This document shows positions 3,628 to 9,123 of a stretch of DNA of 64,000 nucleotides, piece after piece. The number at the start of each line of letters is the position of its first letter. The stretch's first letter is position 1. The stretch comes from Candidatus Izemoplasma sp. (GTDB lineage Bacteria; Bacillota_I; Bacilli_A; Izemoplasmatales; Izemoplasmataceae), in contig JAXKVY010000005.1 of NCBI GenBank assembly GCA_036172455.1, positions 1 through 64,000 of the forward strand, given 5' to 3'. Position numbers and translations under genes: made by a program. The notes below the pieces were generated by a model, which was given only the letters and a program-made list of their open reading frames with translations, was not told where the DNA came from and did no database searches.

Positions 3628-3630
3628 GAA

Positions 3631-3658
3631 AAGCGTTGCTCGTACGAGCAACGCTTTA
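3631..3658. terminator. bidirectional rho-independent terminator between convergent genes
   Basis: 12-bp perfect stem AAGCGTTGCTCG/CGAGCAACGCTT with T-rich flanks on both strands. Confidence 0.7.
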
Positions 3659-3660
3659 TT

Positions 3661-3960
3661 TTAAATCATGATACCAAGTAATTCATTAATCTTTTTCATT
3701 TTGCGTTTTATTTTGCGACTATTCCAAAAGGAATGTTTTAAGTGTTTCTTAATTTGACGGAGTAGTTTATAAACTTTTTTCAACTTGCGTTTGTTAATTT
3801 GTTTATTATTGTTGATGGAGTATTCAACGTTTTCTTTTAAATCATTCAAAGAGTCTTTAAATTTGTCTTTATTGGTACTACTTGCGACACGATCAAGTGC
3901 ACTTGCTAAATCATGTAAGTTTTCAATTGTTTTACGTCTTTTATTATCTAAATCAGCCAT
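3661..3960 (-). CDS. small basic coiled-coil protein (operon member 4 of the TIR/SPFH locus)
   Basis: About 99 aa starting at MADLDNK, with an AGGTGA RBS 5 nt upstream. The C-terminus is extremely K/R-rich (KKHLKHSFWNSRKIKRKMKK). It overlaps the stop of the upstream SPFH gene by about 10 nt. Confidence 0.5.
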   Translation of the reverse strand: MADLDNKRRKTIENLHDLASALDRVASSTNKDKFKDSLNDLKENVEYSINNNKQINKRKLKKVYKLLRQIKKHLKHSFWNSRKIKRKMKKINELLGIMI

Positions 3961-3968
3961 ATTGTCAC

Positions 3969-4844
3969 CTATAAATCCTTTCCGCATTTACTGCAGAAGT
4001 TGGCTTCTTTAGGGTTAGGATGACCACATTTGTTACAGAATACTTTATCCGTTTGAGGTCCTTGGTTAGGAATTTTAGCATCCTTTTTTATTTCTTTTCT
4101 GACCCCTTTACGAAGTTTTTTATTGTCATTAAATTCTGTATTATTTAAAATACTTTCTTTTTTTACATCCTTGAGTTTTTCAAGAAACGCTTCATCATAA
4201 TAAAACCGTTCAATAAAGAATTTGTTTAAGGTTACTCCATACTCAGTAAAAACAGGGTTTAGTAGTTCTTTTAATTGATTTGCAATCTCTTTTTCTTTAG
4301 TTGTAATAATTTGGATATCATCAAGGCCATATTTATTTTTGAGAAAGACCTTTGCGATGGTATTTCGAATTTCTTGATTAAGTTCACTTTTAAAGAAATC
4401 TTTTACCATCTCTTGTGTTAACTCTTGATGAGACCCTTGCACTTTTGAAAAGAGCTTCATTGAATTATCAATGGAGAACTTGTATGATCCATTTGCGCCG
4501 ACATCTGTGTGCATATCATATTTTTTGTCATAGACATCAATTTTGTTTGGCGTACCCCATTTGTTCTCAAGTTGCGCGGTCCGATTAATGTAGTAAATGT
4601 TACAATCAGTGATTGTCTTTTCTTTCTTGAGAAGTTTACTGAGGAAACCTGTGCCTTTAGTATTGACGACATAATACTCTTCACGATCATCAAATGCGCC
4701 TAAAAAAGCCCCTTTTCTTAAGAAAATTATGTCACAATCTTTACGAGCATAAATTTTAGATTTCTTTGTTAATGTTGTGACATCACTTTTCCAAATGACT
4801 GCCTCAGGATGTCCTTTAAATATGACTTCTGTACGTTTTGCCAT
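3969..4844 (-). CDS. SPFH/band-7 domain protein with C-terminal double zinc ribbon (YdjI-like)
   Basis: N-terminal and central similarity to the B. subtilis YdjI type (SPFH Band_7_1). The C-terminus FCNKCGHPNPKEANFCSKCG parallels YdjI NFCPNCG..ANFCPNCG. Confidence 0.6.
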   Translation of the reverse strand: MAKRTEVIFKGHPEAVIWKSDVTTLTKKSKIYARKDCDIIFLRKGAFLGAFDDREEYYVVNTKGTGFLSKLLKKEKTITDCNIYYINRTAQLENKWGTPNKIDVYDKKYDMHTDVGANGSYKFSIDNSMKLFSKVQGSHQELTQEMVKDFFKSELNQEIRNTIAKVFLKNKYGLDDIQIITTKEKEIANQLKELLNPVFTEYGVTLNKFFIERFYYDEAFLEKLKDVKKESILNNTEFNDNKKLRKGVRKEIKKDAKIPNQGPQTDKVFCNKCGHPNPKEANFCSKCGKDL

Positions 4845-4846
4845 AA

Positions 4847-5668
4847 CTATTCCTTTTCCTCTCTAGCTTTTAAGCTTTTAATTTTATTTTTAGCATGTGT
4901 ATTAATGTGTTTACTTAATGCAGGATGACTGTCTTTAAACTGTTTAACAGGTAATCTTGAAATACTCTTTCTTTTGTTTATTAACCCATATAGCCCACCA
5001 ATTGAAGCAATTATGATCAGATATTCTTGTGTATTAATGACTTGGTTAATCAAGGGGCTTGATATTTCTAATATGCTATTTAGTGCGTATATACCAAATG
5101 TAATAGCAAGAAATAAAATGGCGTAAGATAAAAAGTGCTTAAAGAGTAATGTAAGGTATGAAAAGATAATATTTGATACCCTGTATTGCGGATATTTAGT
5201 TTTAAGCATATAAGGATGTTTTACTCCCTTAAACGCTGATTTTGGAATGGTTAAATTCTCGAAATTATCAGGGTATTCTTTTTCCAATAATTCTTTTGTC
5301 CCTTCATTGAGATGTCCTTGATCGAGTGTTTCAAAGATGTCAAGTGCTTCTTGAGTAGTGAAATCATCTGTCAAAAGGTATTTTTTGTGCGTTTCATAAT
5401 ATATCCAAAAGATTATGAATTCTAATGTCTTTTTATAATAAAATTTAACCGGATAAGAAACATCATGTACACGTTTTGATAAGTATAGACCTTCAGTTAA
5501 AGCATCTTGTAATGCTTTAGAAAATTGGTTCACATCACCATTAGAAGCGATTTTGCTCACAACATCTTGAAAAGAGATTTCTGTTGCATCGTCGTTTATG
5601 ATTTCACCACAATTGTCACATATGATAGTGATACCATTTAAGGTTTTTTCACAACTGGGACACTTCAT
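4847..5668 (-). CDS. zinc-ribbon membrane protein (YdjH-position analog)
   Basis: N-terminal CPSC-x10-CDNC zinc ribbon and two C-terminal hydrophobic helices. Its ATG overlaps the TGA of the upstream gene (ATGA). Confidence 0.5.
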   Translation of the reverse strand: MKCPSCEKTLNGITIICDNCGEIINDDATEISFQDVVSKIASNGDVNQFSKALQDALTEGLYLSKRVHDVSYPVKFYYKKTLEFIIFWIYYETHKKYLLTDDFTTQEALDIFETLDQGHLNEGTKELLEKEYPDNFENLTIPKSAFKGVKHPYMLKTKYPQYRVSNIIFSYLTLLFKHFLSYAILFLAITFGIYALNSILEISSPLINQVINTQEYLIIIASIGGLYGLINKRKSISRLPVKQFKDSHPALSKHINTHAKNKIKSLKAREEKE

Positions 5669-7623
5669 GATGTCTCCCCCCTTAATGATAAATTAATCCG
5701 GTGTTTCTTTTTACGCTTTTTATGACGACAATGCATGAGCAAATCGATGACCAAATCATGTGTTTCATCAAGTTCAAATAACTTTTCAACAAGTTGAGAT
5801 TCAAGTAACTTATAGCGCTTTTTCTTACGAAGTTTAGCAATCGCTTTGTATAAATCAACTGTATTATTCACCTTCATACTAGCTAGTAGTAAGTAAAGAT
5901 ATTTTTTATTGCTAGTGTTATCGTATTTAAAGAGTTCTAAGGTGAGGCTGAGCGCTTCTTTATAGTCTTTATGTTCGAAGGCAATTAAGATTTCTTCATG
6001 TAAATGAGTGACTTTAGTTCGGTTTTCTTCAAGTGTTTCTGTGGTTTCTTTTTGATGTGCTTTAAACTTTACTAAGTAGTTTGTAATATATTTTGGAATA
6101 TGACTTCGATTAAAATCAGGGTGTTCCTTAATGCTTTCCATATCATCAAAGAGTGGTGTCAATTGATCGAAGTTGGGTGTGTCTTTATTCAGAGATTCAT
6201 TTAGTTGATCATCGGTATCAAACGCATATTTAATCAATAATTTGTTCCATGTATTTAAGATATGACGGTGACATTTTACATCAATATAGCTCTCTTTATG
6301 TTTAGGATTTAGCCGTGGCATATTGATATAATGCAGTAATTGTTCATATAACGCATCTTCAAAGGGTTTTATTGTTTTAGGATAATGTCCATCAACAAAT
6401 GGCGTATATTTTTTATACTGTTGATAAGCAGATTGTTGGTAACACGCCATGAGTTTATCTAGGTTTTCATCCTTTTGTGTAAAGGTATGAAAGACCTCTT
6501 CACTAGAAAATTCATTTTCTGCCAAAAAGAGTTGAAACCAAGCTTCTTGAGCGTTAGGTTTTAGGCTGAGGGCTTCTTTTGTCGTATCTATTGCGTCTTG
6601 ATAGTTTTGGTTTATAAGTTCAATATGACTTCTATTTAACAATTTGTCATATTCGTCTAATTGTGTTTTTTGACGTTTTTCTTGGGAGGTCGTGGTTTTT
6701 AGATTTGCTTCTTGTAAGCCATGATAAATGCGTTGTTTTAATTCTTGTAAAGCGCCATCAATATCAGTTGTAGCATCTATCCATTTAAATCCATCAAAGA
6801 AGTACTTAAAAGTTGATGTATGCTTAGTATCATCTATTTTAAACTCTAATCTGTTTTTCTTTAATTTCATAGCGATATCAAGTTCTTTACGAACATCTTG
6901 GCTAAGCATGGCACTTTCTGATGTTATCACTAAAAAGATATTTGCTTTCGTAATGGCATCTTCAATATTAGACCAATAATTGTCATTATCATTTGGTCGT
7001 AAATTCCTAGATGATATCCAACAGGTATAACCATCTGATTCTATAACATCCACAACGGTGTTCGCAATATCTTGTTCGGTCGAACGATAGGAGATAAAGA
7101 CATCTCTAGGAATGGAAGCATAATTTTCTTCTTCAATAATCTTTTGGTTGTATACCCGTTCGTATTCTTCGAGCTTACTGGGCATATTCGATTCTATAAA
7201 CGACATCACTAGTTGTTTATCTCGTAAATCACTATACGTAATCATATGATCAACGATTTTGGTGATATCAGTTTCTATCGTAAATGCATTTTGATTATAA
7301 AATTTCAATAAATAACGTCTAGCTCCAAATTTATAGTTGGCATAGGCATAGTAATAGGTAGCCAAAGTATCTTTAGGAATCAGACGTAAAATTTCTTTTG
7401 TGAAATGTAAGATATTTTTATGGTCATCAACTTCAACAGCACGGTTTAAATTATCCCTAAGTTTCGAAATTTGTTTGTGTTCTTTGGTCCCTTTTAGAGC
7501 GAATTCGAGACCATTGCTAACTAAAAATGTTGAGCCACAAGCCTCACACTTTTGGGTGGTTTGTTCATGATCAATCTCAATTGAACTACCACATGATGTA
7601 CATACGATCTTTGTTAACTCCAT
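5665..7623 (-). CDS. zinc-ribbon / TIR-domain / TPR-like helical protein
   Basis: The N-terminus CTSCG-x14-CEACG is a zinc ribbon. Residues about 174-300 (nt about 6724-7104) read DVFISYRS...CWISSRNLRPNDN...IFLVITSESAMLSQDVRKELDIA, a TIR fold with a conserved Glu. The C-terminal 350 aa are helical repeats. Start is set at MELTK, with a GGAGG RBS. Confidence 0.65.
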   Translation of the reverse strand: MELTKIVCTSCGSSIEIDHEQTTQKCEACGSTFLVSNGLEFALKGTKEHKQISKLRDNLNRAVEVDDHKNILHFTKEILRLIPKDTLATYYYAYANYKFGARRYLLKFYNQNAFTIETDITKIVDHMITYSDLRDKQLVMSFIESNMPSKLEEYERVYNQKIIEEENYASIPRDVFISYRSTEQDIANTVVDVIESDGYTCWISSRNLRPNDNDNYWSNIEDAITKANIFLVITSESAMLSQDVRKELDIAMKLKKNRLEFKIDDTKHTSTFKYFFDGFKWIDATTDIDGALQELKQRIYHGLQEANLKTTTSQEKRQKTQLDEYDKLLNRSHIELINQNYQDAIDTTKEALSLKPNAQEAWFQLFLAENEFSSEEVFHTFTQKDENLDKLMACYQQSAYQQYKKYTPFVDGHYPKTIKPFEDALYEQLLHYINMPRLNPKHKESYIDVKCHRHILNTWNKLLIKYAFDTDDQLNESLNKDTPNFDQLTPLFDDMESIKEHPDFNRSHIPKYITNYLVKFKAHQKETTETLEENRTKVTHLHEEILIAFEHKDYKEALSLTLELFKYDNTSNKKYLYLLLASMKVNNTVDLYKAIAKLRKKKRYKLLESQLVEKLFELDETHDLVIDLLMHCRHKKRKKKHRINLSLRGETS

Positions 7624-7711
7624 AGATAAATCCTCCCTAATATAAAGAAAAGAGCGACGAATCACTCTTTTAGATTGTATAAGTATTATGTCATAGCGTT
7701 CCCTTGTTAAA

Positions 7712-7741
7712 ATTATATCACAAGCAACCTAATCATTTCAA
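7712..7741 (-). promoter_or_regulatory. sigma-A type promoter of the TIR operon
   Basis: Minus strand TTGAAA - 17/18 nt - gTGaTATAAT (extended -10), about 90 nt upstream of the MELTK start codon. Confidence 0.5.
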
Positions 7742-7752
7742 AACTATTTTTC

Positions 7753-9048
7753 TCAAGTTTCCAAAATATAGCTCACAAGATGGGTCTTTTGATGAAAAAT
7801 CATGACAAAACCTTTGTAAATTAATAACGTGTCTAAGGTCGGATCAAACTTAATTGATTCAAACAGAATAGAGTCACCTTTTTTGGTGAGTTCACTAATC
7901 ATCTTATCTAGCATATAGTCTTGGTCTGTGTTGTCATTAGGTAAATCAAATGATAAGATGTTTACCTGTGTTTTATCTTGCATTGGAATATCTCTAATCT
8001 CATATCCATAAAGACCAACTTCAACATCATCTTTTAATAATGTGACTTGATGTATGTCAGATATTAGTTCCTCTGTGAGACGATATTTTTGCGTATAAGA
8101 AGTTGGTCTAAACTTTAAGGTATCGGTGACTTTTACATTGAGTAATGTTTTAAGAATATTGATACTTAAAGAGATATATGTAACAGCAACCATAATAGCT
8201 AAAATTTCCTTTTGAGGCCTTGGGTCGGTGAATAGCTCCATTGTCCCAATCATTATGCCAAGACCAATTAATGTTAAAGTTCGTATATAAAATAATGTCA
8301 TTTTATGTGTGTAGGTTTTATTTACAATTGAAATAATAAAATCAACAATTAATAAGAATGCGAGTGCAATCAATAGTGTCATTAAGAACCGTTCTGTATT
8401 GGTGCTGAGATTTTGAATATTTTGAAATAATACTACAACGGTAATACCCATAAGTAGATGCAATAATTTTAAGATATCTAATAATTGATATTGAATCAGT
8501 TGTTTAATATAATAAACAAAGATACTAAAGATCATGACTAAGTAAAGAATAAGGGCAACTGTTTGTCCGCCTTCACCAACCGAACTGCAATTATAATCGG
8601 TCCAACCACAACCAGTAATAGCTAAATGGATGTAGTCAATTACGATAAATAGCGGTAACAAAATCCACAGCTCTAAAGGTTTAATACTTCGAGAAATTAA
8701 TAGACTGTGTACACCTAATACGAGAATAAGCAGGAGATAAACAGTGATTAGGTTAGATAACTCAAGAGCATTTTGGAAGGTATAAAAGTACATCAAAATA
8801 TTACCGATAAGCCCAAAGAGTAAATACTTTTGTTCAATTTTTGATGGTACGTGAATCTTATCAAGATAGATGGCTAACGCAATCCCTAAAGCTAAAGCAA
8901 GTAAAAGTATGAGATTAAGAATGAGTGTAATGATATGATCAGAACGCGTTATAGAACTACTGTAAATGGAGACAATTCCCCAAATAAAAGGGGGATATAA
9001 GAAAAATATATAGGTTAATACATAGTATAATTTACTGACTTTTTTCAT
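7753..9048 (-). CDS. polytopic membrane protein with C-terminal soluble domain, unknown function
   Basis: About 10 predicted TM helices and a roughly 130-aa hydrophilic C-terminus. The ATG at 9048 has an AAGGAG RBS. Confidence 0.45.
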   Translation of the reverse strand: MKKVSKLYYVLTYIFFLYPPFIWGIVSIYSSSITRSDHIITLILNLILLLALALGIALAIYLDKIHVPSKIEQKYLLFGLIGNILMYFYTFQNALELSNLITVYLLLILVLGVHSLLISRSIKPLELWILLPLFIVIDYIHLAITGCGWTDYNCSSVGEGGQTVALILYLVMIFSIFVYYIKQLIQYQLLDILKLLHLLMGITVVVLFQNIQNLSTNTERFLMTLLIALAFLLIVDFIISIVNKTYTHKMTLFYIRTLTLIGLGIMIGTMELFTDPRPQKEILAIMVAVTYISLSINILKTLLNVKVTDTLKFRPTSYTQKYRLTEELISDIHQVTLLKDDVEVGLYGYEIRDIPMQDKTQVNILSFDLPNDNTDQDYMLDKMISELTKKGDSILFESIKFDPTLDTLLIYKGFVMIFHQKTHLVSYILET

Positions 9049-9123
9049 ATGAACCACTCCTTAATCCTATTATACCCTCTATGCTTCTATAATACTATAG
9101 ATACTGTTAGATTATCGATCAAA

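Follow-up and report, generated by a model that had tools for sequence, protein, structure and literature searches.

Organization of the operon

The window considered here is the whole stretch of 64,000 nucleotides at the start of contig JAXKVY010000005.1 of Candidatus Izemoplasma sp., a wall-less marine relative of the Mollicutes. The subject of our analysis is a set of four minus-strand genes at positions 3661-7623, in the order g1-g2-g3-g4, which encode a TIR-domain protein (g1), a zinc-ribbon protein with hydrophobic helices (g2), an SPFH protein (g3) and a small basic protein (g4). The products of g1, g2 and g3 are each 100% identical to NCBI proteins recorded under Candidatus Izemoplasma. 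A first-pass annotation, made from the sequence alone, had described these genes as a single transcription unit with its own promoter and a bidirectional terminator, and we reached the same conclusion from the open reading frames (ORFs), the promoter elements and the terminator hairpin (Table 1): the four genes are a single operon with its own promoter and a common terminator. Each gene has a ribosome-binding site (RBS). The start of g1 was placed at the ATG at 7623, given that the alternative listed, a GTG at 7665, has no RBS and that the orthologues begin with MELTK; a longer version of g4 (108 aa, ATG at 3987) likewise lacks an RBS. The genes had also been described as packed with overlaps of 2-10 nt, and the tight packing stands, but only g1 and g2 overlap, through a common ATGA at 5668-5665 that holds the start of one and the stop of the other, whereas a 2-nt gap lies between g2 and g3 (TAG-TT-ATG) and an 8-nt one between the TAG of g3 and the ATG of g4.

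The promoter of g1 is an 11/12 match and the top-scoring site between 3400 and 9300; promoter-like sites overall are not enriched (34 observed versus 30 expected). The same promoter layout was found 5' of g1 in two loci from metagenome-assembled genomes (MAGs) of the same genus, L015 and L016 (L-numbers denote surveyed loci and P-numbers surveyed homologous proteins). On either side the terminator hairpin is bordered by A/T runs; it stands between g4 and a convergent cyclase gene on the plus strand and is shared by the two.

Table 1. Features of the operon and their positions in the window
Feature	Residues	Nucleotide positions	Strand	Details
g1		5665-7623	minus	652 aa counted from ATG 7623
g1 zinc ribbon	6-31	7531-7608	minus	CxxC...CxxC
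g1 TPR-like helical linker	35-166
g1 TIR domain	172-290	6754-7110	minus
g1 putative catalytic Glu247 codon	247	6883-6885	minus
g1 C-terminal TPR-like helical domain				~350 aa, followed by a polybasic tail
g2		4847-5668	minus	273 aa
g3		3969-4844	minus	291 aa
g3 SPFH domain	30-240	4125-4757	minus	Band_7_1 (YdjI/SamI-like)
g3 C-terminal zinc ribbon	269-291	3972-4040	minus	C270, C273, C284, C287
g4		3661-3960	minus	99 aa; ATG has AGGTGA RBS
Promoter		7712-7741	minus	-35 TTGAAA at 7741-7736; 18-nt spacer; extended -10 TGaTATAAT at 7720-7712
5' leader of g1		7624-7711	minus	GCTAT motif, mini-ORF, hairpin and T-run, RBS
Bidirectional intrinsic terminator		3630-3657	both	12-bp stem with 6 GC pairs, 4-nt loop

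The TIR protein g1 and its relatives

The central domain of g1 had been identified as a TIR domain in the first-pass annotation, and this assignment was confirmed by both sequence profiles and structure prediction. Residues 175-289 match Pfam TIR_2 (E = 6e-15, 56 bits against a cut-off of 28), and an AlphaFold2 model derived from an alignment of 60 homologues has a mean predicted local distance difference test score (pLDDT) of 91. When the central domain of the model was compared with solved structures using Foldseek, it matched the TIR domains of SPARTA, MyD88, MAL and SARM1 with a probability of 1.00, a TMt of ~0.78 and a root mean square deviation of ~2.5 Å. The rest of g1 structurally resembles TPR-like repeat proteins, and a PDB profile search with the g1 alignment returned nothing beyond TPR proteins and the zinc ribbon of an RNA polymerase. 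There is no hydrophobic or transmembrane segment in g1 by hydrophobicity scan, consistent with a cytoplasmic protein, and an exact-sequence look-up of g1 matched no record.

Several features of the domain suggest that it is an enzyme. The nearest sequence matches of the g1 TIR are the catalytic TIRs of SPARTA and TIR-STING, and it aligns best with the SPARTA TIR-APAZ protein, with Glu247 of g1 falling on SPARTA E77, which we take to be the catalytic residue. Glu247, the glutamate of an RKELD motif that had been singled out earlier as conserved, is invariant in all 60 homologues, as are the four cysteines of the zinc ribbon (C8, C11, C26 and C29), and the motif WISSRNLRP (W202-P210) is invariant or nearly so in the same set. 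Based on these matches, the g1 TIR probably cleaves nicotinamide adenine dinucleotide (NAD).

The part of g1 that is conserved across its family comprises the first ~300 residues, that is, the zinc ribbon, the helical linker and the TIR domain, at ~40% identity. At E<=1e-30 this module was found in 198 representatives among 1.84 billion, and in essentially all of the best 150 representative proteins (240-2031 aa) it is N-terminal. Full-length orthologues of g1, 45-83% identical, occur in many Izemoplasmatales-like genomes, including strain HR1, and in metagenome contigs. Outside the type seen in HR1 and the window, nearly every member has 1-5 transmembrane segments C-terminal to the module, and many carry repeats after them, of the LRR_5, LRR_8, Flg_new, RCC1, InlK_D3 or DUF5011 families or of Ig type. 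One product with an ectodomain is 4039 aa long (L005, 9284-16927), and it and further members with ectodomains (P0040-P0047, P0078, P0090 and L009, 9257-11689) come from uncultured Clostridia-like bacteria. In P0027-P0030 a C-terminal helical domain like that of g1 is followed by 4-5 transmembrane segments. Since the transmembrane segments come after an N-terminal module, the TIR domain of these proteins is cytoplasmic and membrane-proximal and the ectodomain is receptor-like; by analogy, the layout may be likened to a Toll-like receptor turned around, with the TIR domain N-terminal and inside and the repeats C-terminal and outside.

Two further arrangements were noted among the relatives. Some members (L057, 7546-9447; P0036; P0039) have a C-terminal match to FtsK_gamma, a winged-helix, DNA-binding domain, in place of an ectodomain. 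In a Clostridia MAG (L011, 5037-7598) and in L012, a LemA gene and a gene for a DUF2207_C membrane protein lie immediately upstream of a TIR-LRR gene; LemA pairs are membrane-associated and possibly stress-related.

The products of g2, g3 and g4

The N-terminal zinc ribbon of g2 (C3, C6, C17 and C20, in a CxxC...CxxC arrangement that is invariant in homologues) is followed by a helical region and then by hydrophobic helices at about residues 164-199 and 214-237, and the protein ends in a basic helix. An AlphaFold2 model made from three sequences had a pLDDT of 45 and was not usable. We considered whether g2 is a paralogue of the N-terminus of g1 and rejected this, as only the zinc ribbon aligned by hhalign. 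In all Izemoplasmatales-type loci g2 directly follows g1 with a start/stop overlap, and outside this order g2 is missing and the TIR protein itself carries the transmembrane segments. Because g1 has no transmembrane segment of its own and g2 is always next to it in the Izemoplasmatales, the simplest reading of these arrangements is that g2 is likely a membrane anchor supplied to g1 in trans.

The SPFH domain that had been proposed for the 291-aa protein g3 was recovered by Pfam as Band_7_1 (E = 1.6e-16, 61 bits against a cut-off of 24), together with Band_7 (E = 7e-8), and a basic linker joins it to a zinc ribbon (Zn_Ribbon_1, E = 4e-8, 33 bits against a cut-off of 25). Three zinc ribbons in the operon had been counted previously, and there is indeed one in each of g1, g2 and g3, but the ribbon of g3 is a single one of four cysteines and not the double ribbon that had been described. 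The hydrophobicity scan found no transmembrane segment in g3, which is consistent with a soluble protein, and no relative of solved structure emerged when the PDB was searched with a profile of the g3 alignment. Among the four proteins g3 is the most conserved, with nearest homologues 94%, 84% and ~70% identical. The homologue search yielded only a limited number of close relatives, and in most cases a g1 homologue is on the same contig or a TIR_2 gene adjoins; g3 belongs to a subfamily separate from YdjI/SamI.

The product of g4 is strongly basic, with 27 Lys and Arg residues against 11 Asp and Glu residues in 99 aa, and is assumed from its composition to be helical. In most g3-type loci a g4 homologue comes directly after the SPFH gene, and this is seen in each of the three architectures (A, B and C) described below.

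Association of TIR and SPFH genes

The co-occurrence of TIR and SPFH genes was seen from both directions. Among loci of GTDB representative genomes that were seeded with peptide patterns of the TIR module alone, a g3-like SPFH ORF lies within 10 kb in 15 of the 20 that could be evaluated, and the corresponding metagenome loci, some of which duplicate the earlier ones, have an SPFH gene in 13 of 16 evaluable cases. Conversely, in all six loci that were seeded with g3 homologues (43-58% identity), three genes stand side by side, which encode the SPFH protein, a g4-like protein of ~105 aa and a protein with the zinc-ribbon/TPR/TIR module. SPFH genes are few per genome, and because of this the chance of such adjacency would be ~1-2%; the link between the TIR and SPFH genes is beyond chance.

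The pairing recurs in many uncultured bacteria of Firmicutes-like kinds and spans the Izemoplasmatales, Clostridia MAGs and one Elusimicrobiaceae MAG, in three gene orders. Architecture A, that of the Izemoplasmatales, is g1-g2-g3-g4. In architecture B, the SPFH gene and the g4-like gene are followed by a gene for a TIR protein that bears its own transmembrane segments. Architecture C, found in extended loci of Clostridia and Elusimicrobiaceae (L011, 10383-17133; L027, 3483-8134; L032, 1366-14112; L025, 8082-19852; and L050), adds proteins of ~345 aa and ~195 aa and a classic AAA ATPase, and in some of these loci also a trypsin-like protease headed by a zinc ribbon, a DUF4011-AAA protein or giant zinc-ribbon-headed proteins (1551-2044 aa) that have only this head in common with g1. 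The presence of these other zinc-ribbon-headed proteins in the loci of relatives would fit a possible role of the zinc ribbon as a common docking head.

The leader of g1

The transcript that begins at the g1 promoter would carry a GCTAT motif (7697-7693) a few nucleotides from its 5' end, a mini-ORF of two codons (ATG ACA TAA, 7694-7686) and a terminator-like hairpin (7671-7648) that spans 7671-7645 with its T-run and ends just before the g1 RBS, AGGGAGGA (7638-7631). We compared this leader with nine others from distinct Izemoplasmatales (L015, L016, L017, L003, L001, L004, L019, L037 and L039), and in all 10, the window included, a hairpin followed by a T-run was present at the equivalent place. 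The first-pass annotation had made no mention of this hairpin. The stems vary by lineage and stay paired (GAGTGA/TCGCTC, GGGTGAC/GTCACCC, GGCGAT/ATCGCC and AGCGA/TCGCT), and GCTAT is unchanged in all 10 leaders, usually inside GCTATG. The leader is therefore a candidate for a conserved transcription attenuator, which it probably is, and the conserved hairpin suggests that the operon is expressed conditionally.

By RNAalifold, the GCU(A) motif pairs only weakly (4 bp, no covariation) with the 5' arm of the terminator hairpin. The leader has no Rfam match, and the folding energy of the whole leader is no better than that of shuffled sequences. Because of these three results, a model in which the motif acts as part of an antiterminator is speculative.

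Synteny, composition and neighboring genes

The first-pass annotation had presented the operon as an insertion between housekeeping genes that looked more AT-rich than its flanks, and neither claim held. In L016, in which g1 is 69% identical, both flanks are the same as in the window, and in L015 (g1 83% identical) the flanks on the g1 side are the same and the contig ends just past g1. Identities between the window and L016 are 69% for g1, 52% for g2, 84% for g3 and 80% for g4, compared with 72% for zwf, 72% for the cyclase and 59% for the membrane protein next to g1, such that the products of the operon have diverged much as the housekeeping proteins beside them have. At the distance of family or order the flanking genes differ. 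The operon has a GC content of 32.1%, against 34.2 +/- 1.6% in windows of the same size (10th percentile), which makes it mildly AT-rich and not an outlier, and the module was not matched in IMG/VR contigs, GenBank phages or PLSDB plasmids. A recent horizontal insertion was rejected on these grounds, namely GC content, synteny and divergence, and the lack of a match in viral, phage or plasmid sequences.

The gene upstream of the operon, an ORF of 434 aa at 7753-9057 on the minus strand, has its stop codon 12 nt upstream of the -35 box of the operon. Its description as a membrane protein is the label given to it from sequence by the earlier reader, and it matched no family in Pfam, NCBIfam or PADLOC. 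It is syntenic in L015 (66% identity) and L016 (59%) and does not adjoin the operon in more distant genomes. Since there is no terminator between this ORF and the operon promoter, read-through into the operon is possible.

A defense-island context was also considered for the surveyed loci and was not supported, as the matches obtained in a PADLOC scan of 122 neighbor proteins were mainly to generic HTH, AAA and protease domains. The LmuA, PDC-M35A and RT-Protease matches all came from the trypsin-like domain, those to PDC-S37 and Hhe from the DUF4011 part of an AAA fusion protein in L025, and those to mad3, AriA and mad8 from one ATPase-like protein in L017; there were also matches to mad1, mad2, PDC-S04, PDC-S72 and RmrA.

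Proposed mechanism and alternative explanations

Our preferred interpretation, to which we give a probability of about one in two, is that the operon, probably under the control of the attenuator, encodes a TIR enzyme complex that assembles at the inner membrane face, in which cleavage of NAD+ is organized by the SPFH protein and released by a cue. In such a complex g1 would be the effector or sensor, its TIR domain having kept a glutamate equivalent to the catalytic one in NAD-cleaving TIRs; g2 would be its membrane anchor in trans, which elsewhere would be part of the TIR polypeptide itself; g3 would be a soluble scaffold of the YdjI/SamI type; and g4 would be the small basic partner of g3. 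An SPFH oligomer might dock to the zinc-ribbon membrane proteins, as YdjI does on YdjG/YdjH, and thereby organize and restrain the TIR proteins. A cue at the level of the membrane, such as membrane damage or phage attack, or an external ligand in the relatives with LRR, Ig-type or RCC1 repeats, could then alter the assembly, so that the TIR domains would be released or clustered, self-associate and cleave NAD+ via E247, leading to growth arrest or to an NAD-derived signal. What the analysis established is the layout of the operon, the identity of the domains, the conservation of the active-site glutamate, a membrane-proximal topology across the family and the reciprocal neighborhood of TIR, SPFH and small-protein genes; physical interaction of the proteins, NADase activity, a trigger and an outcome of either immunity or stress signaling are inferred.

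A number of results weigh against this interpretation. By sequence, the g1 TIR is only weakly similar to solved NADase TIRs (E ~0.02), and in the homologue alignments the position of the tryptophan that often precedes the catalytic glutamate in bacterial TIR NADases is Val244 in g1. Neither g2 nor g4 belongs to a family in Pfam, PADLOC or NCBIfam (for g4, none above the noise of coiled-coil matches). HR1-type Izemoplasmatales (L001/L002/L038, L004/L018, L019 and L041) have g1 and g2 without g3 or g4 nearby, a GNAT acetyltransferase gene following the pair in L001 and L004, and the complete HR1 genome gave no match in the g3 homologue search. As HR1-type loci have g1 and g2 only, g3 and g4 are facultative and an SPFH protein is not obligatory for g1 and g2. 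With respect to immunity in particular, within the genus the locus has stayed in place and been passed on vertically, which is less typical of antiphage systems, and no defense-island, prophage or plasmid context was found.

With regard to the biological role of the complex, we lean, tentatively and with less than even confidence, towards antiphage immunity, only slightly ahead of phage-independent envelope-stress signaling. To our knowledge, all well-characterized bacterial TIR enzymes act in immunity or conflict, and the variable partners and ectodomains of the family, as well as the AAA and protease partners in relatives, were counted in favor of defense. A defense role is a plausible candidate, suggested by the known uses of TIR domains and by the AAA and protease partners in distant relatives. 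A housekeeping envelope-stress module, that is, a PspA-free variant of YdjGHI/SamGHI in a wall-less cell in which membrane integrity would be critical and the TIR domain would have a signaling or NAD-metabolic output unrelated to phage, would account for the YdjI architecture and colinearity of g3, for a locus that is syntenic and diverges as its housekeeping neighbors do, for the wide distribution of g1 orthologues (45-83%) in Izemoplasmatales-like genomes including HR1, and for the lack of a mobile-element or defense-island context; leader attenuation fits a stress-induced operon, and the zinc-ribbon membrane partners parallel YdjG (PMC11237479). Nevertheless, no PspA, TPM (YdjH-like) or NTF2-like (YdjG-like) domain was found in the locus or in the Pfam-annotated neighborhoods, and the relatives join the module to partners that resemble effectors (a protease, a DUF4011-AAA protein and giant surface proteins). 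We also know of no TIR domain to which a function in maintaining the envelope has been ascribed. We hold this explanation to be less likely than not.

Two other explanations would change the role of the TIR domain or of g2. In a two-step system of the Thoeris kind, g1 would make an NAD-derived messenger on infection and g2 would be a membrane-disrupting effector activated by it, with g3 and g4 as accessories; the weak domain-level ThsB matches of g1 and the invariance and translational coupling of the g1-g2 pair in the Izemoplasmatales, even in the loci without g3 and g4, are in line with this. However, g2, which might hide a cryptic binding domain given its poor structural model, has no match to SIR2, SLOG, Macro or another ligand-binding domain and no PADLOC hit, and its absence outside the Izemoplasmatales, where the TIR polypeptide itself contains the transmembrane segments, argues for an anchor and not a separate effector, which makes a messenger-activated g2 quite improbable. 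The TIR domain might instead be a non-catalytic interaction domain, like those of Toll-like receptors and MyD88, that assembles surface receptors in SPFH microdomains for external sensing or adhesion, with NAD+ left unconsumed. The receptor-like build of the relatives (a cytoplasmic TIR, one transmembrane segment and LRR, Ig-type, RCC1 or Flg_new repeats) and the presence of MyD88 and MAL TIR filaments among the top structural matches would agree with such a role, yet the near or complete invariance of Glu247 and WISSRNLRP in 60 sequences is the pattern of an active site and the closest sequence matches are the catalytic TIRs of SPARTA and TIR-STING. As such, we consider a purely structural TIR domain very improbable.

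Returning to the SPFH-organized TIR enzyme, it is conceivable, though we hold this wider proposal with clearly less than even confidence, that the operon represents a new family of membrane-anchored bacterial TIR receptors, with a zinc-ribbon/TPR/TIR module in the cytoplasm and in many cases LRR, Ig or RCC1 ectodomains on the outside, in which the NADase is gated by a dedicated SPFH scaffold and a small basic partner and which sense phage attack or a breach of the membrane and respond with NAD+ depletion or signaling. As far as we know, the bacterial TIR systems described to date are activated either through soluble sensors, such as Argonaute, SAVED or STING, or because they sense phage proteins directly, and bacterial SPFH and flotillin-like proteins are membrane organizers whose clients are few and poorly defined. 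A genetic link, conserved and reciprocal, of a TIR module that looks catalytic to a YdjI-type SPFH scaffold would hand SPFH proteins a concrete enzymatic client, hint at how the oligomerization of TIR domains could be gated at the membrane, offer a prokaryotic parallel to the SPFH-organized TIR and immune receptors of eukaryotes (plants and animals), and let the function of YdjGHI/SamGHI-type modules be approached from a new angle. Because the module occurs in uncultured, wall-less Izemoplasmatales and in Clostridia of gut and sediment, it would escape defense screens in model organisms.

Comparison with known systems

Assignment of the operon to a known system failed, as PADLOC, NCBIfam and Pfam gave matches at the level of domains only. 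No system of PADLOC-DB v2.0.0 was matched: g1 had hits to its TIR domain only, the best being the TIR of SAVED_TIR (2.6e-9), and g2 and g3 had none. In agreement with the earlier statement that the operon lacks a SIR2/SLOG, STING or NLR partner, none of these was found by Pfam, PADLOC or NCBIfam, nor did g1-g4 match Macro, SAVED, APAZ/Ago, cyclase or PspA families in these databases; SIR2, SLOG and Macro matches were also absent from the upstream membrane protein. The architecture had been thought undescribed, and our full-text searches of the literature available to us likewise found no paper that joins SPFH, Band-7 or flotillin proteins with a bacterial TIR, an anti-phage function or Thoeris.

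The extended Clostridia-type loci resemble IetAS in that they have a classic AAA ATPase that matches PADLOC IetA (1e-27 to 3e-43) together with a protease. The IetA match, however, covers the generic AAA core only, with a score close to that of Pfam AAA, and for this reason membership of the extended loci in IetAS was rejected. Moreover, IetS is an S8 subtilase and the protease of the relatives is trypsin-like with a zinc-ribbon head, and the operon in the window has neither the AAA ATPase nor the protease. With Thoeris the resemblance is that of g1 to ThsB at the domain level (PADLOC 4e-5; Pfam ThsB_TIR 1.6e-3, with 19.3 bits falling below the cut-off of 21.2), whereas a ThsA effector, with either SIR2-SLOG or transmembrane-Macro domains, was not found in the locus.

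Prokaryotic TIR immune enzymes are switched on by induced oligomerization. The protein g1 shares with the TIR immune effectors (SPARTA, TIR-SAVED, Thoeris ThsB and TIR-STING) the TIR fold and a glutamate at the position of SPARTA E77, and SPARTA TIRs are its best matches in both structure and sequence. What sets g1 apart from them is that its sensor or regulator parts are zinc-ribbon/TPR modules and an SPFH scaffold at the membrane. In plants and animals there are immune receptors organized by SPFH proteins, namely HIR proteins and the flotillin-TLR4 pair (PMC13534476, PMC11039508). The relatives of g1 that have a single transmembrane pass, an LRR or Ig-type ectodomain, a cytoplasmic TIR domain and a paired SPFH scaffold are similar to Toll-like receptors, with the differences that the topology is inverted and that g1 of Izemoplasma has no ectodomain. 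This parallel is an analogy only, with common descent not evidenced beyond the TIR domain.

For the part of the operon other than the TIR domain, the closest described system is pspA-ydjGHI (pspA-samGHI) of Bacillus subtilis, in which YdjG (two zinc ribbons, an NTF2-like domain and a transmembrane segment) and YdjH (TPM) recruit the soluble YdjI, which in turn recruits PspA (PMC8581546, PMC11237479, PMC9239133, bioRxiv 10.64898/2026.02.06.704340). Both g3 and YdjI/SamI are soluble Band_7_1 SPFH proteins with a C-terminal zinc ribbon, and the two align colinearly over 313 aa with 22% identity (E = 6e-13; the ends of the YdjI sequence used agree with the primers in PMC8581546). Both systems also have membrane-protein partners with N-terminal zinc ribbons, comparing YdjG with g1 and g2. 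They differ in that g1 and g2 have one zinc ribbon each and no TPM or NTF2-like match, and PspA_IM30 was found neither in g1-g4, nor in the Pfam-annotated neighborhoods, nor among the 25 most frequent families of the 122 neighbor proteins. In the Izemoplasma operon it is the zinc-ribbon partner that bears a TIR domain, and a 99-aa basic protein is encoded after the SPFH gene. Our results support the view that what is new here is the combination of a TIR system with a YdjI-type SPFH module, both parts of which were known separately.

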